DNA from: a virus
Lineage: Duplodnaviria; Heunggongvirae; Uroviricota; Caudoviricetes
Length of the DNA: 64,000 nt
IMG/VR virus record: IMGVR_UViG_3300001605_000009
Strand: one strand, 5' to 3'
Positions 11,443-51,189 of the stretch are shown here, piece by piece. The translations under genes and the position numbers were made by a program. The first letter of the stretch is position 1; the number at the start of each line of letters is the position of its first letter. Under the pieces are notes generated by a model. That model worked only from the letters and a program-made list of their open reading frames with translations, was not told the origin of the DNA and did no database searches.

Positions 11443-11444
11443 GT

Positions 11445-25454: not shown

Positions 25455-25497
25455 CGACTATATACTCGTTATAACAAAAGTTACAACAAAAGTCAAG
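25455..25497 (-). promoter_or_regulatory. sigma70 promoter (TTGACT, 17-nt spacer, TATAAC) firing into the tRNA/tmRNA-like fragment
   Basis: The minus strand reads aaaaatatttcTTGACTtttgttgtaacttttgtTATAAC, about 45 nt upstream of the fragment. Confidence 0.5.
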
Positions 25498-25732
25498 AAA
25501 TATTTTTCAAGCGTTCGGCCTTAGCACGAAGATGCTCAGCTGGGGACATTCCGTAGTCCTGATGGTTAACAGAAATATTCGCTAGTACAAATCCAAGGTC
25601 TTTTCGCTCCTGATAGAACTGCTCACGCATCTTTCGCTTACGCTCTAGCTTCTGCTCACGAGTTTCTAGATTTGGGAAGTTGACTTGTCCGTTGGACTTT
25701 TGCTTCTGTACGACCTGTTCTGCTTCCTGCAC
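25493..25732 (-). CDS. hypothetical basic protein
   Basis: ORF with the promoter at 25830-25870 upstream. Confidence 0.4.
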   Translation of the reverse strand: MQEAEQVVQKQKSNGQVNFPNLETREQKLERKRKMREQFYQERKDLGFVLANISVNHQDYGMSPAEHLRAKAERLKNIS

Positions 25733-28328: not shown

Positions 28329-29006
28329 TTAATCCTTGTCTAAATTTAGTATGTCTTCTTTAAATAGCTCTGTGTTACCCTTTGACTTTAAAAAGTCTTT
28401 TACATATATTCTTTTGTCTTTGAACTTCTTTAGTATTTCTGTTTCTTTATCTAAAGCGTCCTGTCCTCTTATAAAGAACTCTCCAAATAATATTTTAATA
28501 TCCCTATCTTTGTCCTGTCTAAACCTCTGCTCAATAGATTTGTTTGTAATACCAACCTTATAATACTCATTATCTATTTTAATATAGTACAATATAGCAG
28601 ATTTAGTAGTATCAAAAGTATAGGAGGCCGGAGAATTAAACAGAGAACAAATTGGGCACCCACTACCTGATAGTATATTTGTAGGTGTTGAACTCCACTC
28701 ATGTCCGTCTGTGCACTTGTGAAGTAAATGTGTGTATGCATTTATATAAGGGTCAAGAACCTCTATTCCTCTGGTCTTTAATTGTAATTGATATGTTGAA
28801 TGCTCTTTTTTAACTCCGCCTTTGCAAGTAGGACAACCCTTACCTTGCAGTACACTATTAGGCCTAGCTAACCACGTGTGGCCTGCTATACACTCATGCA
28901 TAATAGGGGTACTACTATTAATATAAGTCTGTATGGGGTAAGCATCTGCTTCTATATTTAGAAGTCTATTTTCGTATTCTTCGTGTGTTAGTGTCTTCTT
29001 AGCCAT
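28329..29006 (-). CDS. GIY-YIG homing endonuclease with dual zinc-binding N-terminal repeats (paralog of the ORF at 6237..6968)
   Basis: HECIAGHTW...GKGCPTC, HKCTDGHEW...GSGCPIC, and then AILYYIKIDNEYYKVGIT. Confidence 0.7.
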   Translation of the reverse strand: MAKKTLTHEEYENRLLNIEADAYPIQTYINSSTPIMHECIAGHTWLARPNSVLQGKGCPTCKGGVKKEHSTYQLQLKTRGIEVLDPYINAYTHLLHKCTDGHEWSSTPTNILSGSGCPICSLFNSPASYTFDTTKSAILYYIKIDNEYYKVGITNKSIEQRFRQDKDRDIKILFGEFFIRGQDALDKETEILKKFKDKRIYVKDFLKSKGNTELFKEDILNLDKD

Positions 29007-33348: not shown

Positions 33349-33422
33349 TGGTGCGGACGGAGAGTATCGAACTCTCGACTACTGGGTGGAAGCCAGTCAC
33401 GTTACCATTACGCCACGCCCGC
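33349..33422 (-). tRNA. tRNA-Gly (UCC)
   Basis: The acceptor strands GCGGGCG and CGTCCGC pair with one G-U. Anticodon loop CTTCCAC; T-arm GAGAG-TTCGATA-CTCTC. Confidence 0.75.
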
Positions 33423-33661
33423 ATTAATCCATTCTCTAACGTCGTCAGACGTGATACTAAACTTGTGATACTTCTTGAGCATAGACACTACTCTAGGTAC
33501 AATATAAGAGTATAGAACTACTCTATCCTTGACCTTGTTCTCTACAGTCAGATAAGGTTTACCTGCTATATAGGCTCTTGCTAGAAAGGTTGCTCTGTTC
33601 TCGTTTCCAACATCCCACCTACGATGGGCTGCAGTTGCTTATCGGCCACACCTAAGTTAAC

Positions 33662-33746
33662 TGGTGGGTAGTGTAGGGTTCGAACCTACCGTGCCTTTCG
33701 ACTCTGGGTTTACAATCCAGGACGCGTCCACTCGCGCATACTACCC
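33662..33746 (-). tRNA. tRNA-Tyr (GUA), type II
   Basis: An 85-nt gene with acceptor strands GGGTAGT and ACTACCC, anticodon loop TTGTAAA, a long variable arm, and T-arm GTAGG-TTCGAAC-CCTAC. Confidence 0.7.
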
Positions 33747-34118
33747 AATTATTTCTCTGCCGCTTTTCATCGTTATTAGTTTATTCGTGAACTCATTCCA
33801 TGTTTTAGCCCAAGGCCCACGAAAAGTCAAGACATATGTTTGACCATGCGAATCCACTTTGTGAAAATCTTCTCTAGTAGTAATGAAGGGAATCAAGCTA
33901 GGTTTATATTCACGAACGCTACCGTCGAGCATAGTCTCGGTCAGCTTTCCTTTTAGGACCCAACTAAAGCAGTTGAATGCATGATTGTGAAAAGCTTCAC
34001 GGCTACGACCGTCAAATTTTAGTATAAGAGCCGAGAATAAGCGCCTAGACTCAATAAGCCAGTAACCTGTTACTGTGCTTTCTGGTCCGCCGTCTTTCAT
34101 TTTCTTAAGGAGCTTCAT
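33741..34118 (-). CDS. hypothetical protein
   Basis: ORF only. Confidence 0.35.
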   Translation of the reverse strand: MKLLKKMKDGGPESTVTGYWLIESRRLFSALILKFDGRSREAFHNHAFNCFSWVLKGKLTETMLDGSVREYKPSLIPFITTREDFHKVDSHGQTYVLTFRGPWAKTWNEFTNKLITMKSGREIIG

Positions 34119-34375
34119 CCGTACATTTCCTGTTGCTCAAACATTCTTTCACGAAGACTAACTTCACGAAATAGTGCATCGTCCGGAACTGTTTTTAGTA
34201 GATCAATCTGCTCTTCTGTGAGTTGTGTACAGTAGTATCCATAATCTTCTGGATCAAGCTTTAACACATTCTTAATATAGTTAAAATAACTATGTTGATG
34301 TTCTGGACTAAGGTAGGCTCGGTTTACTAACATACCTCCATCTTTGACCCAAACTGGTACTTGAATTTCTTCCAT
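34115..34375 (-). CDS. hypothetical protein
   Basis: ORF only. Confidence 0.35.
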   Translation of the reverse strand: MEEIQVPVWVKDGGMLVNRAYLSPEHQHSYFNYIKNVLKLDPEDYGYYCTQLTEEQIDLLKTVPDDALFREVSLRERMFEQQEMYG

Positions 34376-34376
34376 A

Positions 34377-34727
34377 TCAAAATACCTTTAGCTGATTTGC
34401 ACTGAACCCAATCTGACGATACAGAATATCATTCAAGATAGGAAGTTTAGTTTTAACTATACCCATACGCTGAGAGTTAGGCTTCTTACGAAGAATAGTA
34501 CCTCTAGTCTTTAGACCCGCACCCTTTGCTAGTATAGCAATCTGACGTCCAATCTCATACCCAGGACTACTAATATCGTAGTTAAATGGCTCGCCATTAT
34601 AAATGGAAAGAATACCAGCATGAATACTAGGAATATTTAGCCAGTCTTCTACGGTTGTTCTAACGCCCTCTACGGTAATATTGCTCATTAGTATCTCCAC
34701 TTGTTGAAACCATATTAGCGGATTCAA
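34377..34727 (-). CDS. hypothetical protein
   Basis: ORF only. Confidence 0.35.
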   Translation of the reverse strand: MNPLIWFQQVEILMSNITVEGVRTTVEDWLNIPSIHAGILSIYNGEPFNYDISSPGYEIGRQIAILAKGAGLKTRGTILRKKPNSQRMGIVKTKLPILNDILYRQIGFSANQLKVF

Positions 34728-34756
34728 CGTGAAGGATCAAGACTTAAATTAGGAAC

Positions 34757-34832
34757 TGGTGAACCATGTTGGGATCGAACCAACGACACGGAGATTAAGA
34801 GTCTCCTGCTCTACCTACTGAGCTAATGGTCC
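34757..34832 (-). tRNA. tRNA-Lys (CUU)
   Basis: Acceptor strands GGACCAT and ATGGTTC, D-arm TAGCTCAGTAGGTAGAGC, anticodon stem GGAGA/TCTCC with loop CTCTTAA, and T-loop TTCGATC. Confidence 0.7.
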
Positions 34833-34987
34833 GAATACTTAACTCAATACACTAGATATTGTTAATACCACTCCGTTTAGCTTAAGAGTGCGTAAAAGCG
34901 ACCTGACAATCACCCTTTCGCATAGTGTCAGCTATACCGACACTTTGAGAGAGTGCCGTCTAGTGTACTGAGTTAAATACTCGGTAA

Positions 34988-35063
34988 TGGTGCCTCCCCG
35001 AGGAATCGAACCCCAACCTCTAGTTCTTCAGACCAGCGCGCACACCAGCTACGCCAGAGAGGC
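34988..35063 (-). tRNA. tRNA-Phe (GAA)
   Basis: Acceptor strands GCCTCTC and GGGAGGC, anticodon loop CTGAAGA, and T-loop TTCGATT. Confidence 0.7.
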
Positions 35064-35187
35064 AAAATGCTGTTACGGTAGCACTCCACTTGATTTATAC
35101 ATAGAACGTCAACTAGATAGCGTCTGCAGTACGGACCTAGTAATATAGTCTAGTGATAAATAGTGAAGTGCTGTCATAACAGCACAA

Positions 35188-35269
35188 TGGAGTCGGCGAC
35201 AGGATTCGAACCTGCATTTTCAATCCAGTTACCTTTCTCTCCGTTCGTAGCGGAGGGGGTTACGCCGAC
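35188..35269 (-). tRNA. atypical tRNA-like gene, 82 nt; the anticodon arm may read ACG (Arg) but the D-arm is irregular
   Basis: The acceptor strands GTCGGCG and CGCCGAC pair perfectly, the T-arm is GCAGG-TTCGAAT-CCTGT, and the 3' end is CCA. The internal arms CTCCG-CTACGAA-CGGAG do not fit a standard cloverleaf. Confidence 0.4.
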
Positions 35270-35278
35270 AATATTATT

Positions 35279-35944
35279 TTACCAGTTGGGTACTTTGTTA
35301 GATTTCTTTAGATTTTCTTCTACGGTTAAATACTGTAGGTTATTCTCTACATGTAGTCCACAACTATTTTTAGCGTTAAGAGGGTATATATGATCTACAT
35401 GATACCCTTCTGGACACTCATTATATATTTCTTTTAGCTTCTTAATATCTGCCCATGGAGCTAGGGCTTGTTTTAGTTGGGCCCTTCTTCTGGCATTCTT
35501 TTCTCTACCATGTATTTTCCAGTATTCCTGATGATACTCTTTATTATTTTGATAATTATTCTTATTATATGAAGATTTACAATCTGTGCAGTACCTGTCT
35601 ATACCGTCATGCTCTAGGGCAGATTTAGTGAAAGTCTCTCTTAAAGAGAATTCACTACATCCGGAGCACTTCTTGTAGTCTGACTGTCTTACTAGCCAGG
35701 ATACCCAGGTACCCTCCCCTCCTTGTAGCTTTACCTCAGGAAATAGCCTCTTAACTAATCTATTAAAGGTCTGTTCAGACCTACCAAGACTTTTTATAGC
35801 TTTTGGACCTGTTCCATAAGTAAATAGGGCGTCTACCACTTCTCCAAAACAAATAGGTGGTTTTTCACCTCTTTTGTTAATGACTATAGTGTACTGCCCT
35901 ATGTTTAGGTTTTTATAAATTGATTCTTTTACTTTCTGTTCCAT
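35279..35944 (-). CDS. HNH homing endonuclease, inserted within the tRNA cluster
   Basis: HNH motif GYHVDHIYPLNAKNSCGLHVENNLQYLTVEENLKKSNK. N-terminal DNA-binding region. The promoter at 35953-35997 lies upstream. Confidence 0.75.
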   Translation of the reverse strand: MEQKVKESIYKNLNIGQYTIVINKRGEKPPICFGEVVDALFTYGTGPKAIKSLGRSEQTFNRLVKRLFPEVKLQGGEGTWVSWLVRQSDYKKCSGCSEFSLRETFTKSALEHDGIDRYCTDCKSSYNKNNYQNNKEYHQEYWKIHGREKNARRRAQLKQALAPWADIKKLKEIYNECPEGYHVDHIYPLNAKNSCGLHVENNLQYLTVEENLKKSNKVPNW

Positions 35945-35952
35945 ATTCCAAA

Positions 35953-35997
35953 ATAATAGCAGTTTGGAGGACAGAAGTCAAGAACTAAAATTTGGTA
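35953..35997 (-). promoter_or_regulatory. sigma70 promoter with TTGACT, a 17-nt spacer and TATTAT
   Basis: The minus strand reads aaattttagttcTTGACTtctgtcctccaaactgcTATTAT, followed by the ribosome-binding site and ATG of the HNH gene. Confidence 0.55.
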
Positions 35998-36070
35998 CCC
36001 CAGGCGAGACTCGAACTCGCACAACTTTCGGACCTAAACCGAACGACTTTACCAATTTGCCCACAGGGGC
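35993..36070 (-). tRNA. tRNA with a UAG anticodon (Leu-like); one U-U acceptor mismatch
   Basis: Anticodon stem TTCGG/CCGAA with loop TTTAGGT, T-arm GCGAG-TTCGAGT-CTCGC, and acceptor strands GCCCCTG and CTGGGGT. Confidence 0.5.
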
Positions 36071-36078
36071 ACAATAAA

Positions 36079-36154
36079 TGGTGGAGGATAACGGGATCGA
36101 ACCGTTGGCCTCAACAGTGCAAGTGTTGCGCTCTCCCAGCTGAGCTAATCCCCC
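36079..36154 (-). tRNA. tRNA-Ala (UGC)
   Basis: Acceptor strands GGGGGAT and ATCCTCC (one G-U pair), D-arm TAGCTCAGCTGGGAGAGC, anticodon loop CTTGCAC, and T-loop TTCGATC. Confidence 0.75.
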
Positions 36155-36156
36155 AT

Positions 36157-36232
36157 TGGTACCTGATGACGGTCCTGCCCCGCCGACCTGAGTCTTGTAA
36201 GGACCCCGCTCTACTAACTGAGCTAATCAGGC
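36157..36232 (-). tRNA. tRNA-Val (UAC) with a non-canonical T-loop
   Basis: The whole gene aligns with canonical bacterial tRNA-Val except that the T-loop reads GGCAGGA instead of the canonical TTCGATC. The anticodon loop is CTTACAA. Confidence 0.5.
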
Positions 36233-36380
36233 AAACTTTTTTCTACAGGCATACTTTCGTAGCTGTTTCTTTTTATCTTTAATAACTTTTGGTTTGTTGT
36301 ATCTGTAGCTATTACCTGCTACAGGGTTTCTTGTCTTCATTTCAAGTTCTCCTTATAGCAAGAATTTAACTAACAGTCAA

Positions 36381-36457
36381 CATCTAAATTTGGTGAACCC
36401 TCTGGGATTCGAACCCAGGATCGCGGATTAAAAGCCCACTGCTTTAGGCCTACTAAG
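36381..36457 (-). tRNA. tRNA-Lys (UUU)
   Basis: Acceptor strands GGACCCT and AGGGTTC, anticodon loop CTTTTAA, and T-arm CTGGG-TTCGAAT-CCCAG. Confidence 0.7.
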
Positions 36458-36471
36458 CTAAGGGTCCGTTA

Positions 36472-36768
36472 TTACTTTGATCCGTAACAGGTATGTTCAG
36501 TCTCTTGCTTAAAGCTTCGAATAGCTAGATCCTTCATTTCCTGCGTCGGATAGACGGGAGTCTTAAAAGCATAGCGAATCATGCTCTTGGTTAGCTCGGT
36601 AACTTGAGTGTTAGGAGTAACCATATTCAGTACTTCCTGCTCTTCTAGTCCGAGTTGTCGTGCCCACATAACACTACCTGCTAGTTCTCCCATAGAGGAA
36701 CATACGTTGGCAGCCGCAGGAGTGCAGGACATTACAAAAGCAGTAAAAGCTAGTACAATCTTATTCAT
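36472..36768 (-). CDS. small secreted or periplasmic protein with a signal peptide
   Basis: N-terminal hydrophobic signal MNKIVLAFTAFVMSCTPAAA. Confidence 0.4.
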   Translation of the reverse strand: MNKIVLAFTAFVMSCTPAAANVCSSMGELAGSVMWARQLGLEEQEVLNMVTPNTQVTELTKSMIRYAFKTPVYPTQEMKDLAIRSFKQETEHTCYGSK

Positions 36769-37144
36769 TTTCTAAATCCACTAGGTGTGCACGAATGAAA
36801 TCTACGTTCGATAAGGCTTTGTGCAGAGCCTGTAGATCAAGTTTACCAGCTTTAGCCAGTGATGGAATCTCTAGTCCGAACCAGTCACCAATCTCCTTAG
36901 CAAGGTCCTCCTTGCGAGTAATGGGTTCTCCGTTCTTGCTAACACGAATGGGAGCCTTATAAACTCCAGCACTAGATAGCTTAGCAATAATAGAGCGAGC
37001 ACTTTTACCAAGCTCCTCTGCTAGACGATCTACGGTTGCGCGAGTAGGCTCAGCCGAGTACTCGTCAATAATAAGTTGGCTAGTTTCCTCTGTGTAACTC
37101 ATGGTCACTCCAATATAGTTGTGTAAGTCCATAACTAAGGCCAT
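36761..37144 (-). CDS. helix-turn-helix paralog family member
   Basis: Motif LAEELGKSARSIIAKLSSAGVY. Confidence 0.5.
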   Translation of the reverse strand: MALVMDLHNYIGVTMSYTEETSQLIIDEYSAEPTRATVDRLAEELGKSARSIIAKLSSAGVYKAPIRVSKNGEPITRKEDLAKEIGDWFGLEIPSLAKAGKLDLQALHKALSNVDFIRAHLVDLENE

Positions 37145-37505
37145 AGGCCTCTACTTCCCACGGACTAAAATAATACTGTTCAGAGCCAACCTTGCTATCT
37201 TCGAACTTCTCGCCCTTCCAGATAGAATGGGCGTTGCCATCGACTAAATCTCCACGTGCATACTGTTCAACATGGACCATTTCGTGTGCTAGAACCCCTA
37301 CTGACTCGGCTCCCTTTTCTAGTACAACTAGGAAAGTTTTGATAATATCACTAGCTTCTGGAAAGTGCTCGCAGTAGCCATACATCCCTTTTAGCTTCTT
37401 TTTAATCTTGATGTGAATAAACACAGAGTCATCAAGACCCAGCTTATCAGCAAAAAATCCAGCTGCCTTGGTTAGCTTCTTACTCTTACAATCAATGATT
37501 GCCAT
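37080..37505 (-). CDS. putative zinc metallopeptidase (HExxH)
   Basis: HEMVHVEQ motif, with a consensus promoter upstream. Confidence 0.45.
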   Translation of the reverse strand: MAIIDCKSKKLTKAAGFFADKLGLDDSVFIHIKIKKKLKGMYGYCEHFPEASDIIKTFLVVLEKGAESVGVLAHEMVHVEQYARGDLVDGNAHSIWKGEKFEDSKVGSEQYYFSPWEVEAYGLSYGLTQLYWSDHELHRGN

Positions 37506-37514
37506 TGGATGATC

Positions 37515-37560
37515 CTTATATCAGAAATGGGGCGTACTGTCAAGAACTATTTTTGAATAG
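37515..37560 (-). promoter_or_regulatory. sigma70 promoter with TTGACA, a 17-nt spacer and TATAAG
   Basis: The minus strand reads aaaaatagttcTTGACAgtacgccccatttctgaTATAAG. Confidence 0.6.
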
Positions 37561-37825
37561 CGTTCCTAAGAGTTACTAGATCATCGAGAACTAACTTATC
37601 AAGACCTTTAAATGGGGTTCCTAGAATATTCTCGATTTGCTTTACTAGGTCAGCTTTTGACTCTTTCTTCATCTTAACTGGCTCTCTCAACTCTAGTGGC
37701 CTATAGCTTAGGTTACGTTCACGAATACGAGCTAGGACGTGACGAACTGGGTGTCCACTATTAAGAGATACCGCTAGTGCGGTTTCGTAGTTATGCTCTT
37801 CAAATTGATCTAGAAAGTAATCCAA
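37547..37825 (-). CDS. hypothetical protein with a TTG start
   Basis: ORF with the ribosome-binding site taaggagac upstream of the TTG. Confidence 0.4.
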   Translation of the reverse strand: MDYFLDQFEEHNYETALAVSLNSGHPVRHVLARIRERNLSYRPLELREPVKMKKESKADLVKQIENILGTPFKGLDKLVLDDLVTLRNAIQK

Positions 37826-37880
37826 CTGCTTGTCTCCTTATTTAGATAAATATATCGTAAATAAGGAGACAAATCAAGAG

Positions 37881-38369
37881 TTATTTTGAGTGTTCCTCGC
37901 AAAGAGTACGAATCCAACCTGTCTTTGTTGGCTTTCCTTTATTACCGCAGACTTCGCAGATGCGATAACTCATTTCCTCGGCCATTGTTTCTAGACCTCG
38001 AATGTACTCATCGCCACCACTATAATAGAAACGAAGGCCTCCGAATTTTTCTTTGACCTGAACGGCAACCACCTGATCAATAGGTTCTGGTAGTGGGCGA
38101 GGCTCACGACTCATCCAAGGTTCTCGATCTTGGAAGTCTGTTTTTGCGTGTTCTGCTAGTTCATCATTGAACTTCTTTGTCAGTTCAATAGAACGGTTAC
38201 GCCAATCAATGTGCCCCTGAATAAGAGCACAAAGTTTATCAAGTAGGTCGTACCATCCGTCACCTACGGACAGGCCCCAATACATACAGGTCTTACTAGG
38301 ATCTTCGTAGCGATCACGAAAGATAAGTGGGTACTTTTCACAAAGCTTTTTATCGAGATCAGAATGCAT
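37881..38369 (-). CDS. hypothetical protein with a C-terminal zinc ribbon
   Basis: CEVCGNKG...CEEH motif. Confidence 0.4.
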   Translation of the reverse strand: MHSDLDKKLCEKYPLIFRDRYEDPSKTCMYWGLSVGDGWYDLLDKLCALIQGHIDWRNRSIELTKKFNDELAEHAKTDFQDREPWMSREPRPLPEPIDQVVAVQVKEKFGGLRFYYSGGDEYIRGLETMAEEMSYRICEVCGNKGKPTKTGWIRTLCEEHSK

Positions 38370-38796
38370 TTAGTTTCTCCTGAATTTCAAGGTAGAACTT
38401 GTGATACTTAGCAATACGGGCTACATCCTTCTCGGTGACACCCTTTAGACGGCGAATATCCGAATTGTGACGAAGATCACAAAGCTTGACTCGCATTGCA
38501 TCATGACTGTTAAGTACTTGCTGCTTATAGTTGTCGTAGGACTGGCCATCACGCTTCGTTAGATTTAGAATACCATCTACAACACGATCAGAGAATCCCT
38601 CGTCAAGCAACCTCCGACTAGAAGTATCCGTGTCCTCTAGAAGGTCATGCCCCAGGGCAATACACATAAGTTCTTCGTCTTCGGAGTTTAGATAGTGCAT
38701 AACTTTTAGACAGTGAAATACGTAAGGCTTCCCAGCCTTATCATACTGTCCTTTATGCGCCTCGCACACAATGCTCAGCATGTTTTCTAGGTTCAT
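38359..38796 (-). CDS. HD-domain phosphohydrolase resembling the (p)ppGpp hydrolase domain of Rel/SpoT (small alarmone hydrolase-like)
   Basis: AHKGQYDKAGKPYVFHCLKV...ALGHDLLEDT matches the SpoT/Mesh1 HD signature (HxGQxRKxGxPYxxH...LHDxxEDT). Confidence 0.6.
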   Translation of the reverse strand: MNLENMLSIVCEAHKGQYDKAGKPYVFHCLKVMHYLNSEDEELMCIALGHDLLEDTDTSSRRLLDEGFSDRVVDGILNLTKRDGQSYDNYKQQVLNSHDAMRVKLCDLRHNSDIRRLKGVTEKDVARIAKYHKFYLEIQEKLNAF

Positions 38797-38994
38797 TACT
38801 CAAAGTCCTTCTCTAGATGTTCCATCACACCTTCCCACAGCTTTTTAAAGGCTGGGTTACTGGCGTTTTTCCACGCCGTAAAGGCTAGATACCAACGAAA
38901 TTCTGGTGAGGTTCTAATCACTGGTTTTCTCCTGCACAATCTTTACAAGTTTGTAGTTCTGTCTCTTTATGTATTCAATATACAGAGAAACGGC

Positions 38995-39225
38995 TTACAG
39001 GTCAACATAAGACTTTAGATATGCTATTTCTTCTTCCGCATCCTGAGCGTACTCTATGTTCTCTAGCACTAGTAGAGAGATTTCCTCGCGCGCTTCCCTG
39101 ATTTCTTTGACAGCACGCATCATCCTGCTCATAGCAAGTGCGAGTTTGGCGTCTTGTTCGCCATCTACCGCCTTCATAACACGAAGATGTTCAATGCTTT
39201 GTCGTAGCTCTTCTTCAATAAACAT
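38995..39225 (-). CDS. hypothetical coiled-coil protein
   Basis: ORF only. Confidence 0.3.
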   Translation of the reverse strand: MFIEEELRQSIEHLRVMKAVDGEQDAKLALAMSRMMRAVKEIREAREEISLLVLENIEYAQDAEEEIAYLKSYVDL

Positions 39226-39246
39226 AGTTATCCTTTAGTGCTGAGG

Positions 39247-39552
39247 TCACCGTCCCGCCTCCCATGCTTCACGCTCCTTGCGCATTTGCTCGGTGGCGCG
39301 GGTGAGGTTGGCGCAAGGTCGGATGTGCGGCATTAATGCGCTGCCACCTAACCATGCTGCTACCACCCGCTTCGCCGCTTCTTCGTCAGGATCGGTCATC
39401 GGTGCAGGCGGGTTCATTAGCAGCTCGGCTACGGTTAAGACGGCGGGGTAATCGCGGCACCCCGGCCATTTGTAGTCATATACCGGTCCACTAGCATTCA
39501 GCAACCGCACGGCTTCGCGGCCTACGTGGTCGGGGATGGTGGTCATTTCCAA
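39247..39552 (-). CDS. hypothetical protein encoded in a GC-rich islet
   Basis: ORF in a segment of roughly 58% GC. It overlaps the upstream small ORF. Confidence 0.4.
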   Translation of the reverse strand: MEMTTIPDHVGREAVRLLNASGPVYDYKWPGCRDYPAVLTVAELLMNPPAPMTDPDEEAAKRVVAAWLGGSALMPHIRPCANLTRATEQMRKEREAWEAGR

Positions 39553-39683
39553 CTACCCCTTTTTGAAAATGATCGGGCGACGTAAAACCCGAACCATGCC
39601 AGCGCCAGAATGACGATAATCGTTGGAACGCCGATCAAGGCGGCAAGCGCCCAAAGCGCCCAAGTGGGGATTGTGAATGTCAT
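39543..39683 (-). CDS. small single-pass membrane protein (46 residues) in the GC-rich islet
   Basis: MTFTIPTWALWALAALIGVPTIIVILALAWFGFYVARSFSKRGSWK. Its ATG overlaps the stop of the upstream gene as ATGA. Confidence 0.4.
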   Translation of the reverse strand: MTFTIPTWALWALAALIGVPTIIVILALAWFGFYVARSFSKRGSWK

Positions 39684-41528: not shown

Positions 41529-42014
41529 TCATTGTGGACCACAAGGGTCAACAATGATTTGGTGGAATCCCTCATCTAATGTGGGCGGCTGATAGTTACG
41601 ATCCATCTGCCTAAGAATATGCTCTGGAATCCGTTTATCAGGCCTGCTAGCAAGTCGTTCTGCCCAATTATCAGGAATTGGAAAAACAACTGCCGTAAAC
41701 TTATGGTTTGGCAATGCCTTAAACAACCGTGCGCGACTCTTTACTGTTAAGTTTGTACGATCAATGTAAACATCTTCGTTACACCCTTCTAGAAGTTCCC
41801 AAAAATGTGCCTCTGCTTTCTTGATGTATTCTGGGAACACATTATTATATGTTTGTCCTCTAAGCTTAGCAAATAACTCGATAAAATCATCACTAGAAGC
41901 TACAAAGATATTATCTGGTCGGCTGGCAAGCCACGTAGACTTGCCAACTCCAGGAAGACCCACTAAAACATACGCATTAGGCATTATAAATAACTCCTGG
42001 AAACCATTCTGCAC
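41529..42014 (-). CDS. P-loop polynucleotide kinase-like protein (kinase domain of T4 Pnk-type)
   Basis: Walker A motif GLPGVGKST. The gene is small and sits next to the RNA ligase genes. Confidence 0.6.
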   Translation of the reverse strand: MQNGFQELFIMPNAYVLVGLPGVGKSTWLASRPDNIFVASSDDFIELFAKLRGQTYNNVFPEYIKKAEAHFWELLEGCNEDVYIDRTNLTVKSRARLFKALPNHKFTAVVFPIPDNWAERLASRPDKRIPEHILRQMDRNYQPPTLDEGFHQIIVDPCGPQ

Positions 42015-43191
42015 GGATTTCTTCGTACTTACTAGTCTTAGCTAGATTCTTGCGAATAGTATTATAAATTTTTTGCTCACAAACACTAACGGCATCTACG
42101 TACAGAACCTCGTCCCACATAGCAAACGCTATAGATCTATTAAGCCCACTCATTTTATTCGCATATGTGGTCGCGAAAGTCTTCCGATCCATACCACCGA
42201 TACGCCGACAGTTAGATACTTGTGAAACAATAGAGAGTGCCAAAGGATGAATAACTTTATTAAAGTCATTCTCGAACTGAGAAAGACGATCACGCTCTTC
42301 TTGTGGAAGATGCGCTTTCACGTCGTCTAGCTTTTGATCTAGAATAAGTTCAACAATGTGGCGATCCTGTAGAATACGCTCCTTAGCCTTGTGAATCTGC
42401 ACGTACCAGTCACACTTTAGCTTTACCATGTGTCCGTTGTCAAAACGCACAACGAAGCCTTCAGTGTCCTGAAGATCACGAGTGTGCTCAATAAGACCGT
42501 TGATGTGCTCCTGGGACGGGAAGGATTTCACAATTGGGATATTATACTTCTCGATAATAGGATAGTTATTATGAAGGTTGATAATATAACTACCGCGCTC
42601 CATATTACGAATAGCTGTAAGAATCAGACGATCCTCTGGATAGTCTAGAACGATGCGCTGCTTACGTGAGCACCACTCAAAAATAGGAGTAAACCCATTC
42701 TCGATAAGATCACGAGAGAAGTCAATGTAGTGTGGATTGTTATTCACAAACTCCTCAACAGGCTTCGCCACATCAGTAGCACCCATCTTAGTACCGAATA
42801 CTAGAACAGCACGATTAAAGAATGGGGCAATCATTGATCCATCCAGTTTATCCAGAATGATGTGATCCTCATACAGAGGAACATTCTCGGTCTCTGGTCG
42901 TTCGTTTACGTTGAAGAACTTGTGATAAGGACGGCGAAGAATATCGCCCGTTTCGTTGTCAAAGATAATACCCCGACATTCACGACGAGTAGCAGCGTGC
43001 TTAGCATCCGTAAAAGCTAGCTTGTTAAGCTGCTCGCTCCACTCAATCACAGGCGGAAAAGTATCCTCAAACATCACATTGTAGTTGATAACGGTATAAC
43101 CGTCTTTAACAGCCACTACAAATTCACTACGACCTTCAATCGCAGGAAGCACATCACTGATGTTACGAATTACTGGGAATTGATAGTTCAT
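41977..43191 (-). CDS. RNA ligase 1 (T4 RnlA-like)
   Basis: ECRGIIFDNETGDILRRPYHKFFNVNERPET aligns with the T4 Rnl1 segment [34 protein letters not shown]. The nucleotidyltransferase lysine motif DKLDGSM is present. Confidence 0.75.
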   Translation of the reverse strand: MNYQFPVIRNISDVLPAIEGRSEFVVAVKDGYTVINYNVMFEDTFPPVIEWSEQLNKLAFTDAKHAATRRECRGIIFDNETGDILRRPYHKFFNVNERPETENVPLYEDHIILDKLDGSMIAPFFNRAVLVFGTKMGATDVAKPVEEFVNNNPHYIDFSRDLIENGFTPIFEWCSRKQRIVLDYPEDRLILTAIRNMERGSYIINLHNNYPIIEKYNIPIVKSFPSQEHINGLIEHTRDLQDTEGFVVRFDNGHMVKLKCDWYVQIHKAKERILQDRHIVELILDQKLDDVKAHLPQEERDRLSQFENDFNKVIHPLALSIVSQVSNCRRIGGMDRKTFATTYANKMSGLNRSIAFAMWDEVLYVDAVSVCEQKIYNTIRKNLAKTSKYEEIRAEWFPGVIYNA

Positions 43192-43262: not shown

Positions 43263-43531
43263 ATTCTTTTGTATCGCTGTCGTAACGTAGAAATGACTAT
43301 TTCCCATAGAAACCAAGCACCAAATCCGCCAAATAAGACGTAGGCAGCTAGTGTCTCTCCTAAAAGGTATTCTATACCTAGTTCTACTCCAATTGATAGT
43401 CCACCGACTACTACCACAATAGCTAAAGTTCCTGCTAGAGCCACTCCTAGTAAGATAAAGAAGTCTTTACTTGGAGTAAGTGTCTTTTGTAATGCTTTCC
43501 AATTCATTCTGGCCCACTCCCGTTGCCCCAA
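43244..43531 (-). CDS. small membrane protein
   Basis: Two hydrophobic helices. Confidence 0.4.
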   Translation of the reverse strand: MGQREWARMNWKALQKTLTPSKDFFILLGVALAGTLAIVVVVGGLSIGVELGIEYLLGETLAAYVLFGGFGAWFLWEIVISTLRQRYKRISQGQK

Positions 43532-44160
43532 GCCTTGACAGGCCCAACATATCCTACTACTTCCCAGCGATCCTTAATACGAGCTTCTACTTCGTCGAAG
43601 GACAGAGGCTCGTAGTTAGTGTGCTCTACAGATACACAGAGATAACGCGGGTCAGGAACAGATACTGACTTATATTCACTAGGGTGGGAACTATGGTAAT
43701 CGCTCCAGCCTTTGGATACCATTTTATGCCTAGTCTGCATTACTTCATTGGCATGAAGGTGCCCATGCACGTTAACCTTAAATCGGTCAGTTACGCAGTC
43801 TGGATGCAGCGGAATATGGCTAAGAATAAACTTATCCACAAACACACGAACACCATACATCTTTTCAAAGCCAACTTCCCGATAGTACTTATCATGAAAA
43901 ATATCATGATTACCGCGTACTAGACGCTTCTTACCATTAAGACGTTTTACTAGCTCTAGTGAAGGCTTCTTGATGACAACATCACCAAGATGGTAGACGG
44001 TGTCCTGCGGGCTTACTTTAGCATTCCAACGCTCGATCATGGCCTCGTCCATTTCTTCGTTAGAAGAGAACGGACGTAGAGGATCCCCATTGGGAAGCTT
44101 AAACTTCTGCCACGAATTAGTGTGCCCGAAATGGGTATCACTTATAACAAAGCTGCTCAT
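43504..44160 (-). CDS. calcineurin-like metallophosphoesterase (candidate RNA 2',3'-cyclic phosphodiesterase or 3'-phosphatase in the RNA-repair cluster)
   Basis: Phosphoesterase motifs DTHFGH, GDVV, GNHD and HGHLH. Confidence 0.65.
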   Translation of the reverse strand: MSSFVISDTHFGHTNSWQKFKLPNGDPLRPFSSNEEMDEAMIERWNAKVSPQDTVYHLGDVVIKKPSLELVKRLNGKKRLVRGNHDIFHDKYYREVGFEKMYGVRVFVDKFILSHIPLHPDCVTDRFKVNVHGHLHANEVMQTRHKMVSKGWSDYHSSHPSEYKSVSVPDPRYLCVSVEHTNYEPLSFDEVEARIKDRWEVVGYVGPVKAWGNGSGPE

Positions 44161-44383: not shown

Positions 44384-44556
44384 GAGCAAGTATCTGGCAT
44401 ATCATAACCCGCAGAATACTTAGGGGCTATCCCATTGTCTGACCCCTGCCAGTATGCTACACCATCTATGCATATAATTTCATATTTAGGTTTAGGGGTT
44501 GGCTCACTGCAACCCGAGAGTAGACCTAGACATAGAATAATTACTGGATATTTCAT
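44380..44556 (-). CDS. small lipoprotein (58 residues, lipobox LLSGC)
   Basis: MKYPVIILCLGLLSGCSEPTPKPKY... It is below the 60-residue ORF cutoff of the track. Its ATG overlaps the Rnl2-like stop as ATGA. Confidence 0.45.
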   Translation of the reverse strand: MKYPVIILCLGLLSGCSEPTPKPKYEIICIDGVAYWQGSDNGIAPKYSAGYDMPDTCS

Positions 44557-45569
44557 GAATTAATCCTTTTAATAAACCAAGGGCGAGCCTTGTTAGCAAT
44601 TGGTCCACCAAGCTTCTTAGGATCAAACCCAGAGGCTACAATAGTATCGGTTTCTTCCTTTACAACATCGTTGTAGACCCAACGAATGAAGTCACCCATT
44701 GAAGTCATATCTAGGGGCTTTAGTTGCTCACGAACTAGGTTATCAACACCCTGTTCTAGACGTTGCTCGGTAACTGTAGTGTCAACGAAGTCCTTGAGAG
44801 CTTGAACGGCTTCAACGTCTACAGCAGCTAGAGTCTTAACCTTAGATGCTGAGTGCTTTTCACCCTTTACCTTGAAACGAAGACCTTCCCAACCTGGTGT
44901 AACGCAGGTCCAAACAACACCTTCTCCGACACCAGATACACCGAAAGCCTTGCCCACAGGGCATTCGTTTTCGACGGCTTCTGTGATTTCGATCATGCGG
45001 TTCTGTGCTAGTTCAGGATGTGCGAAGTCAATGTCAAGCTCCCACATTGGAAACTCCTCAATGTCACGAACACCTGGAATATCAGTAAACTCAGTTTCTC
45101 CAGATAGAGGGTCACTCCAGAGCTCTGTACCGTCTTGTTCAATAAACTTCACTGCGAAGATGACAAACATCTTAGGCAGTTCACTAACAGCCACACCACG
45201 TTGAATGCCTTGTCCACACCACTCACCGTATACGGCAATCTTGCGCACACTTGGGTGGCTCATAGTACCAAAGAATTCTAGCCACTTTTTCTCGTACTTC
45301 ATCTGTGCTAGCATGAAGCCAGCGTTATCCTGAGTAAGACTTAGCACCCGTTCACGAGACTGATAAGAAAGTTCTTGTGAAACATAATCGTACACTACAG
45401 CTGCGTTTGTACCGTGAAGCTTCACAGTACCATGAAACTTCAGAGTTGGAAGCTCCCGTGTATGGTCATAGATTGGCTGGCCTGTATCATCCTTACCGAC
45501 ATAGCGGTGTGACGCCTTCACATGATGAATGACGTTGCGAAACTGCTCGATTGATGGAAACTTAATCAT
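44553..45569 (-). CDS. RNA ligase 2-like nucleotidyltransferase (start corrected to an internal ATG with a ribosome-binding site)
   Basis: KLHGTN matches the KxHGTN lysine motif of T4 Rnl2. The promoter at 45578-45640 and the ribosome-binding site taaggagat place the start at 45569 rather than 45752. Confidence 0.65.
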   Translation of the reverse strand: MIKFPSIEQFRNVIHHVKASHRYVGKDDTGQPIYDHTRELPTLKFHGTVKLHGTNAAVVYDYVSQELSYQSRERVLSLTQDNAGFMLAQMKYEKKWLEFFGTMSHPSVRKIAVYGEWCGQGIQRGVAVSELPKMFVIFAVKFIEQDGTELWSDPLSGETEFTDIPGVRDIEEFPMWELDIDFAHPELAQNRMIEITEAVENECPVGKAFGVSGVGEGVVWTCVTPGWEGLRFKVKGEKHSASKVKTLAAVDVEAVQALKDFVDTTVTEQRLEQGVDNLVREQLKPLDMTSMGDFIRWVYNDVVKEETDTIVASGFDPKKLGGPIANKARPWFIKRINS

Positions 45570-45577
45570 TCTTATCT

Positions 45578-45640
45578 CCTTAACAAAACAAATATAGCCC
45601 ATCAACCGAGAAAAGTCAAGGGCTATTGAAAGGCTTGGTC
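45578..45640 (-). promoter_or_regulatory. sigma70 promoter with TTGACT, a 17-nt spacer and TATATT
   Basis: The minus strand reads caatagcccTTGACTtttctcggttgatgggcTATATT. Confidence 0.55.
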
Positions 45641-45775
45641 CATAAAGTCGTAATATGCCTGTGTAATCAAAAGTGATTAGTGTATAATCATCTGACATGA
45701 AGGCATACTCGTTTATCTCGTCTGCGTAGCACCTAGGTTCCGTCCGGTCCATACGTAAATATCATCCGGCATTGT

Positions 45776-47115: not shown

Positions 47116-48492
47116 TTACTTGATTTCAGCGCGTTTTCGAATGTCCTCGAAAGTTTGCTGCTTAGGGACTTCTCCGTCTACAAAGACTACTCGAAGATAG
47201 TCACCTACTGTTTCATAGTCGTCTTCATGATTACTTACTGTAAAGTACTCGTTGTAGAATGTTTTACCTAACTTCAGCAAGCCCCGCTTAGAGCGCTTAC
47301 CACTATCAGTGACTGGATCTTTATAAACATCAACCCATTTGCCGTTGATCTTAGCAGCTGAGCACTTCATGGCGAATTTAAAATCGTCTCGATTAACGAT
47401 CTGAAGAAGCGCGCCGCCCTGACCAAAGACTACGTTATCAGCACTGAAGTCGTGTGCTGCTAGATTGTCTAGAATAGCACGAATAGAGTCGATGTTGATA
47501 CCGTCACCCTGCAATACGCGAACGTTATTAAGAACCTTAAAGCCCTTTTCGTTTACAGTGTAGCCGAAGTATTCTGCTAGAATGCTTACGCAGTCTAGTA
47601 CTACTTTCTTTGGCTCTCCAGAGTCCGGACGAACAACAAGAGTAGCGCCGCTGTCTAGAACATCCTGCTTTAGTACTGTACCCCACAGCTTGCAGGCTTC
47701 ATAGATATTGTAGCTGTCTGAAACAGCGGATACAATACCACCTGGCTTACCATTCTTCTTAACCATGTTACGGTACGCGTCAACTTCGTTTTCGCGACCC
47801 CAACTGGTTACAGTGCTATGTTCCATAGCGGGAACACTGAACCCAGCCATATCAGCACCATAGTGGCGACGAGCAAAGAGCAGAGCTTCAATAGTGTCAG
47901 TACCCATGAAGTTGACAAGATGCGCTGCTCCGCCAATTCCAGCCGACTCAAGCGAGCTAACACCGCGAGAACCAAAGTCATGAAGCTTAAAGCTAATATC
48001 AGCAGGAGTTCCAGTGCGAACGAGAGCATCTAGAATGACCTTCTTAATTTCGCGGCTATTGGTAGCCACAGTTGTAGGATACCAGATCGCTCGAAGAAGC
48101 GCGGTTTCTAGGAACGACGTCAACCACCAGCAATTTGGATCAGTATTCTCAATAGTGGCGAGCACGTTATGAGTTGGCACGACAGTGCCCTCATGTACAG
48201 CTGTGATAAGAACAGGAAGACGACCGTCATGCTCACGAACAATGTACTCCCAACCCTCACGGTTGAAAGGCTCACCATGTGCTAGAATGATGGCTTCCGC
48301 TTCATCAATCATTTCCATAGTGATAGGTTCCATCAAGTATTCTTGAATGAATGCCTGAAGACCAAAGAACACAGTTTCGTCGTACTTGCCACCACGGCTT
48401 TCGATGTAGCTATATACGATTTCAGTACCTTCGGGGTACTGGTTAAATTGGCTGTATTTGTAGCTATCGCTGTTTAGGATAATGTTTTTCAT
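47116..48492 (-). CDS. nadV: nicotinamide phosphoribosyltransferase (NadV/NAMPT)
   Basis: A 458-residue protein with an NAMPT-like N-terminus (LNSDSYKYSQFNQYP) and overall family architecture. Confidence 0.8.
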   Translation of the reverse strand: MKNIILNSDSYKYSQFNQYPEGTEIVYSYIESRGGKYDETVFFGLQAFIQEYLMEPITMEMIDEAEAIILAHGEPFNREGWEYIVREHDGRLPVLITAVHEGTVVPTHNVLATIENTDPNCWWLTSFLETALLRAIWYPTTVATNSREIKKVILDALVRTGTPADISFKLHDFGSRGVSSLESAGIGGAAHLVNFMGTDTIEALLFARRHYGADMAGFSVPAMEHSTVTSWGRENEVDAYRNMVKKNGKPGGIVSAVSDSYNIYEACKLWGTVLKQDVLDSGATLVVRPDSGEPKKVVLDCVSILAEYFGYTVNEKGFKVLNNVRVLQGDGINIDSIRAILDNLAAHDFSADNVVFGQGGALLQIVNRDDFKFAMKCSAAKINGKWVDVYKDPVTDSGKRSKRGLLKLGKTFYNEYFTVSNHEDDYETVGDYLRVVFVDGEVPKQQTFEDIRKRAEIK

Positions 48493-48540: not shown

Positions 48541-49014
48541 TCAAGCCCAATATTTAGTAATGTATGTGATTAGGTCTTCCAAACTATCAACCACATTAAG
48601 ATCATATACGCTAGAAACAATATCTACATTTCCTTTACGCCAGAACGGATCAGGACAGTATACAATAGCCTGTTGTCCCATTCCAGCAACAAGGCCAAGC
48701 TCTAGTAGAGTAATTGGTGATTTTGTACTTGGATCAAATACAAATACTACCAGATCACTGTTTTCAATACCAGATAGCTCCCATAGTACTTGCTCTTGAA
48801 ACTGTTCGTTATCAATAGATTGAGTCCAACTGCTGTCCCAATCATCCCTACGAGGATTAAGGAAGGTAATATCACTATTCTGAAAATGACTAACTAATTC
48901 ATCTTGCCAGTTGATAGCTGTACCCATTTCAATAGAGCCAGCTAGAAAGATTAAAGTATTAAACTCATCAAACTCATTTGGGGCTTTAATTACTTGCATA
49001 TACTGTTGTTCCAT
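48541..49014 (-). CDS. nucleoside 2-deoxyribosyltransferase-like or Rcl-like protein
   Basis: The IFLAGSI motif and a Rossmann-like fold resemble the deoxyribosyltransferase/LOG superfamily. Confidence 0.45.
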   Translation of the reverse strand: MEQQYMQVIKAPNEFDEFNTLIFLAGSIEMGTAINWQDELVSHFQNSDITFLNPRRDDWDSSWTQSIDNEQFQEQVLWELSGIENSDLVVFVFDPSTKSPITLLELGLVAGMGQQAIVYCPDPFWRKGNVDIVSSVYDLNVVDSLEDLITYITKYWA

Positions 49015-49959: not shown

Positions 49960-50144
49960 CTCCTAATAATTGCTTGATGACCACAATTAGGGCAGTCTAC
50001 CCACTCGTGTCCATCAGGACCGCCACTGTAGTCCCTACCACGGTACTCTTTCACTTCACAGAGCTTGTACTCTAGAATAGAAGCACATCCGCGACAGGTA
50101 ATCCGCTTCACAGCTGACTCGTCTCGTCCTACAACTTTAACCAT
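49953..50144 (-). CDS. zinc-ribbon protein
   Basis: CRGC...CPNCGH motif. Confidence 0.4.
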   Translation of the reverse strand: MVKVVGRDESAVKRITCRGCASILEYKLCEVKEYRGRDYSGGPDGHEWVDCPNCGHQAIIRSW

Positions 50145-51189
50145 TTAGTAGTTCCTTAATGATATGATAATGATCGTCGAACATAACACTTTCATCTAGC
50201 TCAGAGATATTAATCCAGCCAGCTGAGACAGCATCATCTGCGCCAACCACATCAGGTCGTTTACCCATCCAGCTAATATCAAAGTAAAAACAGTGACTTA
50301 CAGTATGTCCCATAGTTGAGCGACCTGGATGATCGGCAATGAACAGCTTTGGCTTCCCACTAAGTAGTAGGTCATCCTTAGTAAGTTGCAAACCAGTTTC
50401 TTCAAGCAGCTCACGAAGTGAGCCAGCTAGTGTGCGCTCGCCCGCATTAAGATGGCCCCCAGGAAGAGCTAGAAGCCCCTTACCGGGGTGTTTTCCACGC
50501 TCTACAAGCAGAATCTGGTCGTTATATCGAACCACAGCATCTACAGTGATCTGCTTAACAGGATACGGGGAAGAAGACCACAACTCTGTGTTTATATCAA
50601 TTTCTGTCTGCCAATCAGACATGTAGTTGATAAAACCTAGCTCAGAGTTAGTAATTACGTCTACTGTGCTCCATGGGAGGTTATCTAGCTGTAGCGAAAA
50701 GTCTCGGAAGAGTTCTTCACGAATATCAGTGGCATTCAGCGGGGCATCAATAGCCCACTCTACTAGATCATAGTTTGGGAACATATCAAGGTAGTAGCTA
50801 GACTCGTCCTTACGGGCACCGATGATGCCAATCTTGAGGTCAGCAGTACCATTGTTGTGAAATCCATCAGGATTGGCAACGTCTAGTGCTGTGAACTTGA
50901 TAGCTTCTCTTACTTCGGCAGCCCATGCACTATCATCATAGGGCTGGTCCCGAATAGCGTCTGTATATAGATTTGTGCCTTCAGGATAAGAAGCTAGAAT
51001 CATATCAGAGCGCTCTTCATAGGTCCATGGATTCTTTGGAGTACGCGCACCACCAGAACTTCCAATAAGAACTAGGACGTTCTTGGCTTTGGTAAAAGCA
51101 TGGTCGATCACACTCTTGTGACCCTTATGAAACGGCTGAAAGCGTCCGATGTATACTAGAAGGTCGTACATTATTATCTCCTTATGCAC
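50137..51189 (-). CDS. bifunctional NMN adenylyltransferase and Nudix ADP-ribose pyrophosphatase (NadM-Nudix, NatV-like)
   Basis: Nucleotidyltransferase motif GRFQPFHKGH at the N-terminus and Nudix box GGHLNAGERTLAGSLRELLEETG at the C-terminus. Confidence 0.85.
   Translation of the reverse strand: MHKEIIMYDLLVYIGRFQPFHKGHKSVIDHAFTKAKNVLVLIGSSGGARTPKNPWTYEERSDMILASYPEGTNLYTDAIRDQPYDDSAWAAEVREAIKFTALDVANPDGFHNNGTADLKIGIIGARKDESSYYLDMFPNYDLVEWAIDAPLNATDIREELFRDFSLQLDNLPWSTVDVITNSELGFINYMSDWQTEIDINTELWSSSPYPVKQITVDAVVRYNDQILLVERGKHPGKGLLALPGGHLNAGERTLAGSLRELLEETGLQLTKDDLLLSGKPKLFIADHPGRSTMGHTVSHCFYFDISWMGKRPDVVGADDAVSAGWINISELDESVMFDDHYHIIKELLNG

Follow-up and report, generated by a model that had tools for sequence, protein, structure and literature searches.

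Aph1 (adenosine 3'-pyrophosphohydrolase 1, BACCAC_01146) of Bacteroides caccae is a monofunctional homotetrameric enzyme with hydrolytic activity on pApp, ppApp and pppApp and none on (p)ppGpp (Ahmad et al. 2023, PMC10083569). In the same study ppApp was hydrolysed by all 12 of the Aph1 homologues assayed, with modest ppGpp activity in 2 of them, while ppGpp hydrolysis by wild-type Aph1 was undetectable and required the double mutation D24R/R119A. The aph1 gene lies in a temperate Bacteroides phage, adjoining a MuF-fused (p)ppApp synthetase toxin and the Tis1 immunity gene. Here we describe a homologous gene encoded on the minus strand (38359-38796) of a 64,000-nucleotide stretch of tailed-phage DNA, IMG/VR record IMGVR_UViG_3300001605_000009 (referred to in full as the window), where it instead stands as an orphan within an early-type operon, in a phage that is lytic and distantly T5-like.

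Small alarmone hydrolases (SAHs) of phages have been linked to toxic small alarmone synthetases (toxSASs). Two stand-alone phage SAHs were tested by Jimmy et al. 2020 (PMC7229694), from PVP-SE1 (PbcSpo subfamily) and SSU5 (PaSpo subfamily), and both neutralized CapRel, PhRel2, FaRel2, PhRel and FaRel in E. coli. Kurata et al. reported that FaRel2, PhRel, PhRel2 and CapRel, which are four of the five toxins neutralized by the PVP-SE1 SAH, pyrophosphorylate tRNA at its 3'-CCA end, and that two SAHs, ATfaRel and MESH1, undo this modification; later work says the same of PaSpo, which has been used experimentally to detoxify toxSASs and to strip the tRNA modification. ATfaRel (Cellulomonas marina, PbcSpo) is a small RelA/SpoT homologue (RSH) hydrolase and type IV antitoxin whose gene shares a three-gene operon with that of the toxin, FaRel. 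It reverses toxSAS action on both ppApp and pyrophosphorylated tRNA-CCA and is reported to degrade (p)ppGpp too; its comparison with the window protein is by description.

Family and fold of the hydrolase

The hydrolase open reading frame (ORF) is intact, running from an ATG at 38796 to a TGA at 38359, and its product of 145 amino acids (aa) falls in the same length class as Aph1 (about 146 aa). At levels far beyond chance, the protein matches PHROG 990 ('metal-dependent phosphohydrolase', E = 2e-54) and the N-terminal hydrolase part of TIGR00691 (spoT_relA, E = 6e-12, covering positions 5-118 of the 687-position model), and is a single hydrolase domain without synthetase, TGS or ACT domains. 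Among solved structures Aph1 is the nearest (7SMG; phmmer E = 1e-29, 42% identity over the full length), the alignment running unbroken from residues 3-140 of the window protein on residues 8-143 of Aph1; the other PDB sequence matches (Rel, SpoT, MESH1, PaSAH and RelH) trail at E = 2e-8 or weaker. Membership of the Aph1 family has been defined by homology through the C-terminal ~53 residues, Y90-E143 of Aph1 (Ahmad et al. 2023, PMC10083569), and the homology of the window protein extends through this segment. The gathering score of Pfam HD_4 (PF13328) is not reached (22.4 bits, with a cut-off of 27.2), and a PF13328 hit is precomputed for many homologues 60-77% identical to the protein. The low score stems from a diverged C-terminal half and not from motif loss, and a routine pipeline could therefore leave this gene unnamed.

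An AlphaFold2 model built from 121 sequences (mean predicted local distance difference test score 94.8, predicted template modelling score 0.90) shows the all-helical RSH hydrolase fold. In a Foldseek search with this model, the four chains of 7SMG rank first (template modelling (TM) score 0.89-0.93, root-mean-square deviation (rmsd) 1.1-1.4 Å over 137-140 columns), and the best superposition gives TM 0.91/0.93 and rmsd 1.2 Å (139/141 columns). The (p)ppGpp-capable SAHs (MESH1, PaSAH, RelH) and Rel/SpoT score about 0.7-0.81 when normalized to the query (TMq) and at most 0.68 when normalized to the target (TMt); MESH1 and PaSAH are next in rank after Aph1, with TMq 0.75-0.81 and TMt 0.63-0.68. 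The 27 PDB matches with E ≤ 1e-3 are all RSH hydrolases, as are all except the weakest of the 50 listed. The predicted structure ends in a long helix (residues 122-144) and has the compact topology of Aph1, without the N-terminal helix 0 and C-terminal helix 9; these extra terminal helices belong to the (p)ppGpp-capable enzymes (Ahmad et al. 2023, PMC10083569), and in SAHs of 172-180 aa part of the target stays unmatched by the model (TMt 0.63-0.68). PaSAH of P. aeruginosa (6YVC), RelH of C. glutamicum (7QOC) and metazoan MESH1 (3NR1, 5VXA) share the HD-domain RSH fold and catalytic motifs with the window protein, but are dimeric enzymes of 175-205 aa with an extra C-terminal helix, 23-29% identity, TMt ≤ 0.68 and no Aph signature.

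By sequence, conserved residues and predicted fold, the protein is a stand-alone Rel/SpoT-type HD hydrolase, that is, a small alarmone hydrolase, and we assign this enzyme class with high confidence. Within the class it belongs to the Aph1 family and not to the (p)ppGpp-hydrolysing types. The first-pass annotation, made from the letters of the window, had proposed a stand-alone Rel/SpoT-type HD hydrolase between 38359 and 38796 without giving a strand, which is minus; the ORF is real at exactly these positions and the class was borne out.

Active-site residues and predicted substrate preference

The motifs H14-K-G-Q17, P24-Y-V-F-H28 and L48-G-H50-D51-L-L-E54-D55-T56 are all present (Table 1). 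The first two agree with the HxGQ and PY..H elements recognized in the first-pass annotation; the third, given there as LHDxxEDT, in fact reads LGHDLLEDT. Roles in metal binding were assigned to H28, H50, D51 and D107 from established RSH hydrolase structures. In an alignment of 38 sequences (the window protein, Aph1, gp220 of phage PVP-SE1 and 35 metagenomic homologues) H14, Q17, D19, H28, H50, D51, E54, D107, N111, D113, R116, K130 and Y131 are invariant, N111 being the counterpart of Aph1 N114. Across this alignment and a more diverse set of 151 sequences (Aph1 and the best 150 cluster representatives at 50% identity), E54 is invariant and D55 nearly so; the H/D residues are kept in 148-149 of the 151. 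None of the catalytic His and Asp residues is missing on alignment, so the earlier class assignment is not refuted.

Five of the six signature residues of Aph1 are retained (D19, D113, R116, K130 and Y131), including all five that lie in the active site. Their counts among the 151 diverse sequences are 142 for D19, 148 for R116, 146 for Y131, 131 for D113 and 106 for K130. The Tyr of the Aph1 K133-Y134 pair has been proposed to touch the pyrophosphate (Ahmad et al. 2023, PMC10083569). The conserved determinants suggest a substrate range of pApp, ppApp and pppApp without (p)ppGpp.

A (p)ppGpp hydrolase would act differently in infection, collapsing the host stringent response and sustaining the synthesis of rRNA, tRNA and nucleotides. 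The fold and catalytic residues are common to the window protein and Rel/SpoT, many homologues are automatically annotated as guanosine-3',5'-bis(diphosphate) 3'-pyrophosphohydrolase, and some (p)ppGpp activity is found in 2 of 12 Aph1 homologues and in ATfaRel. However, alignment with B. subtilis Rel sets 'GQYDKAG' opposite 'EQYRKSG', such that the guanine-stacking Arg is replaced by Asp (D19) and the hydrogen-bonding Ser by Ala (A21). R116 is also present, whereas Aph1, with no detectable activity towards ppGpp as the wild type, needed R119A in addition to D24R to accept it, and the structural match is much closer to Aph1 than to any (p)ppGpp hydrolase. We therefore regard this activity as unlikely.

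We propose that the protein is an active single-domain, metal-dependent 3'-pyrophosphohydrolase of the Aph1 family (with Mg2+ or Mn2+, judging from its homologues). The metal would be bound by the H28/H50/D51/D107 centre and water activated by E54/D55, while D19, D113 and R116 would form a pocket for adenine over guanine and K130/Y131 would hold the phosphates. The 3'-diphosphate would thus be removed from pApp, ppApp and pppApp to give AMP, ADP or ATP and pyrophosphate, and the 3'-pyrophosphorylated A76 of tRNA-CCA is a possible further substrate. An HD phosphohydrolase with no link to alarmones would instead act on another 3'-phosphorylated substrate, such as NADPH or 3'-phosphoadenosine-5'-phosphosulfate (PAPS) as for MESH1, or in sanitation of the nucleotide pool. 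Human MESH1 does have NADPH phosphatase activity and a structure in complex with PAPS, and NAD-salvage genes occur in the window, but MESH1 is distant (23-25% identity, TMt 0.63-0.65) where Aph1 is close, the Aph signature is conserved, and a phage homologue 51% identical to the window protein has a toxSAS-rescue phenotype (see below); such a role is highly improbable.

Table 1. Positions of the hydrolase gene, its predicted functional residues and other features of the window
Feature	Position	Strand	Basis or remark
Stand-alone RSH-type HD hydrolase, Aph1 ((p)ppApp hydrolase) family, 145 aa	38359-38796	minus	ORF, PHROG 990, 7SMG, AlphaFold2 model, Foldseek
D19 (Aph1 D24), specificity determinant, Arg in (p)ppGpp hydrolases	38740-38742	minus	alignment to 7SMG and B. 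subtilis Rel
H28, predicted metal ligand	38713-38715	minus	aligns with Aph1 and B. subtilis Rel
H50-D51, HD metal-binding motif	38644-38649	minus	aligned to Aph1 H53-D54; invariant in 38 sequences
E54-D55, catalytic ED pair of RSH hydrolases (E54-D55-T56 = Aph1 'EDT')	38632-38637	minus	aligned to 'EDT' of Aph1 and B. subtilis Rel
D107, predicted metal ligand	38476-38478	minus	aligns with Aph1 and B. subtilis Rel
D113-I-R-R116 (Aph1 D116, R119), signature; R119 a specificity determinant	38449-38460	minus	alignments
K130-Y131 (Aph1 K133-Y134), signature	38404-38409	minus	alignments
Shine-Dalgarno-like AAGGA, 9 nt 5' of the hydrolase ATG	38806-38810	minus	direct sequence reading
Small upstream ORF, operon context only	38796-38939	minus	47 aa from TTG, or 41 aa from GTG at 38921 (AGGAG 7 nt upstream)
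162-aa downstream ORF, operon context	37881-38369	minus	start overlaps hydrolase stop region; no family match
Sigma-70-like promoter match, TTGACC-17-TATATT, 10/12	38977-39005	minus	consensus match only; 5' of the small ORF
141-aa protein	37080-37505	minus	HEMVH zinc-peptidase-like motif
127-aa protein	36761-37144	minus	IF2_N-like segment
tRNA clusters	9216-11530; 33349-36467	minus	ARAGORN, Rfam
Permuted tmRNA	25157-25500	minus	Rfam, ARAGORN
RNA ligases (Rnl1-like, Rnl2-like) flanking a metallophosphoesterase	41977-43191; 43504-44160; 44553-45752	minus	
PNKP-type HAD phosphatase	61556-62029	minus	
NAD+ salvage pair	47116-48492; 50137-51189	minus	NAMPT; bifunctional NMNAT/Nudix-like protein
Nucleoside 2-deoxyribosyltransferase-like gene	48541-49014		
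ORF of 2324 aa	11626-18600	minus	
DUF4379/CapR-homology proteins	6237-6968; 28329-29006	minus	
Fatty-acid-desaturase-like, pentapeptide-repeat and S-adenosylmethionine-decarboxylase-like genes	51681-52388; 52381-52926; 20433-20816	minus	

Possible counter-defence and alternative roles

Over 134 residues the window protein shares 51% identity (E = 9e-52) with gp220 of Salmonella phage PVP-SE1 (YP_004894027.1), annotated as 'metal-dependent phosphohydrolase'. Both are stand-alone phage hydrolases with the Aph-type signature (D, D..R and KY), while gp220 is longer by ~15 residues at the N terminus and ~14 at the C terminus and has other gene neighbours, and PVP-SE1 is a myovirus of the Vequintavirinae and not a distantly T5-like phage. 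When the whole PVP-SE1 genome was searched with four probes, gp220 was the sole ORF resembling the window protein, Aph1 or PaSpo, and because it is the only homologue there we infer that it is the PVP-SE1 SAH construct of Jimmy et al. Since those authors placed that SAH in PbcSpo, the 51% identity is also a lead towards membership of the window protein in this subfamily. PaSpo of Salmonella phage SSU5 (SSU5_099) is likewise a phage-encoded stand-alone RSH hydrolase, but it has 213 aa, is 27% identical to the window protein in the HD core only (E = 1e-5), carries Arg/Lys at the position of D19, lacks the D..R and KY signature in its C-terminal part, and finds its best PDB matches in Rel, SpoT and MESH1, not in Aph1. 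Assignment to the PaSpo subfamily was rejected on the low, core-restricted identity and on these Rel/MESH1-type matches. With gp220 sharing 51% identity and the signature, and PaSpo 27% and no signature, the sequence comparison groups the window protein with Aph1 and the PVP-SE1 SAH.

We hypothesize that the enzyme is made from an early-type operon and cancels the growth arrest or abortive infection imposed by toxSASs of the host or of a prophage. The targets would include makers of (pp)pApp such as FaRel, Tas1 and Apk and pyrophosphorylators of tRNA-CCA such as CapRel, PhRel and FaRel2, and the arrest countered would come from accumulating (pp)pApp, with depletion of ATP, and possibly from pyrophosphorylated tRNA-CCA. 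An enzyme specific for adenosine 3'-pyrophosphates would be chemically suited to both classes of toxSAS product, because the terminal nucleotide of tRNA is an adenosine. The first-pass annotation had offered two functions, suppression of the stringent response and degradation of alarmone-type defence signals such as (p)ppApp or toxSAS products. The second, acting on adenosine 3'-pyrophosphates and possibly on pyrophosphorylated tRNA-CCA, is favoured over the first on the grounds of Aph1-family membership, D19, R116 and the toxSAS rescue by the 51%-identical PVP-SE1 homologue. Other points counted in its favour are the setting in lytic T5-like DNA, the coupled operon, the nearby tRNA cluster, RNA ligases, metallophosphoesterase and NAD-salvage genes, the syntenic retention of the gene in relatives at 95% and 68% protein identity, and the presence of a homologue in 318 phage records. 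We consider the explanation as a whole, an active Aph1-family 3'-pyrophosphohydrolase that counters toxSASs, to be probable; taken by itself, the counter-defence role stands at even or slightly better than even chances.

Several points weigh against this explanation. The strongest is that some Aph/PbcSpo relatives are promiscuous, so that strict adenosine specificity is not assured. The sixth of the Aph1 signature residues, R96, is not part of the active site and is not conserved, being Q93 in the window protein; since this position holds Arg in only 57 of the 151 diverse relatives, it is weakly defining for the family and may not be defining at all. The link to the rescue experiment runs through the identification of gp220 as the tested construct, and the main text of Jimmy et al. 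gives no accession for the PVP-SE1 SAH; moreover, the rescue was observed on co-expression in E. coli and not in phage infection (PMC7229694), and the literature searched yielded no case in which a phage SAH was shown to overcome toxSAS defence in an actual infection. All functional statements about the window protein derive from homologues.

The hydrolase could also be an immunity enzyme against a (p)ppApp-synthetase toxin of the phage itself, comparable to Aph1 with the MuF-fused Apk2 or ATfaRel with FaRel, in which case it would shield the producer cell and have no anti-defence role. Precisely such a function is served by Aph1, the founding member, in a Bacteroides prophage, and with 64 kb of the genome visible, a MuF-type toxin would sit in the head-morphogenesis module outside the window. 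Yet Pfam, PHROG and PADLOC searches found no RelA_SpoT synthetase, MuF or Tis1-like gene among the neighbours, which are small early-type ORFs, nor any toxin-suggesting or known defence-system match. No RelA_SpoT synthetase, MuF protein or alarmone-synthetase toxin was seen among the other window ORFs of at least 125 aa either, each of which was run through Pfam or PHROGs. The layouts of the known toxSAS toxin-antitoxin and immunity loci (FaRel-ATfaRel; Apk2-Tis1-Aph1) are thus not reproduced, there being no adjacent RSH-synthetase toxin gene in the window. In addition, only 0.4% of Aph homologues lie near MuF genes (Ahmad et al., PMC10083569), and PVP-SE1 and other lytic phages with homologues carry a stand-alone gene. 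Self-immunity is thus very unlikely, although marginally less so than the alarmone-independent role considered above.

A more specific form of the counter-defence hypothesis, which we put forward tentatively as a minority possibility, is that the physiological substrate is not a free alarmone but tRNA whose A76 has been pyrophosphorylated by CapRel-, PhRel- or FaRel2-type toxins. By virtue of its Aph-type pocket specific for adenosine, the protein might then be a dedicated tRNA-CCA 'de-pyrophosphorylase', acting with the phage tRNAs, the tmRNA, two RNA ligases and phosphoesterases as a kit for protecting the translation apparatus. If so, it would be a genuine anti-defence gene, and its loss would sensitize the phage to fused toxSAS immunity.

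On the Aph1-family assignment, the annotation can be sharpened from 'metal-dependent phosphohydrolase' or '(p)ppGpp hydrolase' to '(p)ppApp / adenosine 3'-pyrophosphate hydrolase, Aph1 family'. Earlier publications already describe this family, including its structure, the logic of its specificity and its occurrence in phages, and likewise the rescue from toxSASs by a phage homologue with 51% identity; the present finding adds a member and not a principle. It does indicate that Aph1-type enzymes are stable orphan parts of the early regions of lytic phages, in this case of a T5-like lineage not sampled before, and the strict conservation of the specificity determinants supports toxSAS immunity as an obstacle common enough for phages to retain a dedicated hydrolase. 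The protein is a reasonable candidate for an in-infection test of phage SAHs as anti-toxSAS factors, as are, equally, hundreds of homologues from cultured phages.

Operon, relatives and phage genome

The hydrolase ATG overlaps the stop codon of the small upstream ORF (as TAATG), and the last 11 nucleotides of the hydrolase gene form the start of the 162-aa ORF, which has its own AGGAG before that start. Given these start/stop overlaps and Shine-Dalgarno sites, the gene belongs as a single cistron to a compact minus-strand operon with translational coupling, and the upstream AAGGA together with the two overlaps makes it look expressed. The promoter-like match 5' of the small ORF is a candidate for the operon promoter; a scan of the region gave 18 such matches where 13.4 were expected from shuffled sequence, which makes this site weak evidence.

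The whole block is syntenic in two metagenomic relatives (L006 and L007) with a hydrolase 95% identical to that of the window. A 101.9-kb contig (L004) with a 68%-identical hydrolase keeps the small upstream ORF and the downstream genes of 92, 141 and 127 aa. Homologues of the small ORF lie 5' of the hydrolase gene in L004 and L005 (55% identity) and in L006 and L007 (94%). The 162-aa ORF, which encodes a 'KEKFGGLRFYY' segment and a C-terminal CxxC...CxxH motif and found no match in PHROG, Pfam, PDB sequences or PADLOC, occurs in L006 and L007 and is absent from L004. It was considered as an obligate partner of the hydrolase and rejected, as L004 lacks it while retaining other neighbours.

Searches of the flanking ORFs (47, 76, 101, 99, 162, 92, 141 and 127 aa) against Pfam, PHROG, PDB sequences and PADLOC gave no functional tie to the hydrolase, the sole matches being a weak one to Peptidase_M91/HExxH in the 141-aa ORF (E = 0.0017) and an IF2_N-like one in the 127-aa ORF. 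Every relative examined keeps the 141-aa protein (40-89% identity) 3' of its hydrolase gene. The 127-aa protein is an unusually constrained small early protein: its copies in the window and in the distant relative L004 share 91% identity, where its neighbours are at ~40%.

The hydrolase is a new member of a known and very abundant family, found in a new phage lineage. A tblastn search found a homologue in 318 GenBank phage records, mostly of Vequintavirinae-like phages, Aeromonas T4-like myoviruses and pneumococcal prophages, the best match being Klebsiella phage FBKp34 (56.7% identity). In a collection of 5.8 billion proteins, 3197 clusters at 90% identity were matched with E ≤ 1e-5 (the nearest 95% identical). 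Matched clusters at 50% identity numbered 12845 with E ≤ 1e-3 and 4405 with E ≤ 1e-10. Six relatives of 270-440 aa (P0122, P0137, P0147, P0148, P0175 and P0209) are matched by the hydrolase in two to four stretches and so contain tandem Aph-like domains, and others (for example P0121, P0126 and P0130) have an N-terminal extension of ~70 aa.

The window is dense phage DNA with a GC content of 42.3% and nearly all genes on the minus strand. It encodes a family-A DNA polymerase, whose identity to those of T5-like phages is 44% at most, along with a primase, a DnaB-like helicase, an NAD-dependent ligase, ThyX and a dUTPase. No DNA-level relative was found by megablast of positions 37500-39600 against GenBank phages. 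The phage is novel at the nucleotide level, lytic and distantly T5-like.

The two tRNA clusters hold 14 tRNAs according to ARAGORN and 16 according to Rfam, and the second ends 1.9 kb from the 3' end of the hydrolase gene. The permuted two-piece tmRNA is of alphaproteobacterial type (Rfam tmRNA_permuted 90.8 bits, alpha_tmRNA 79.7 bits), with the tag peptide ANDNSAFEGLALVA predicted by ARAGORN; this may point to an alphaproteobacterial host, or to the gene having been captured from one. The metallophosphoesterase between the two RNA ligases is of the calcineurin type, and the PNKP-type phosphatase lies farther off; these genes likely form an RNA-repair set, plausibly a counter to tRNA-cleaving defence nucleases. 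The NAMPT and NMNAT/Nudix pair, adjoined by the nucleoside 2-deoxyribosyltransferase-like gene, is of a kind reported to counter NAD-depleting defence systems.

Immediately downstream of a tRNA cluster is a giant unbroken ORF of 2324 aa, unusual in a T5-like early/replication region, for which PHROG, Pfam and PADLOC gave no match. The two DUF4379/CapR-homology proteins are treble-clef zinc-finger proteins that look paralogous, one with a T5orf172 and the other with a MUG113 domain, and are probably homing-endonuclease-like selfish genes. The fatty-acid-desaturase-like, pentapeptide-repeat and S-adenosylmethionine-decarboxylase-like genes are auxiliary genes unusual in a phage.

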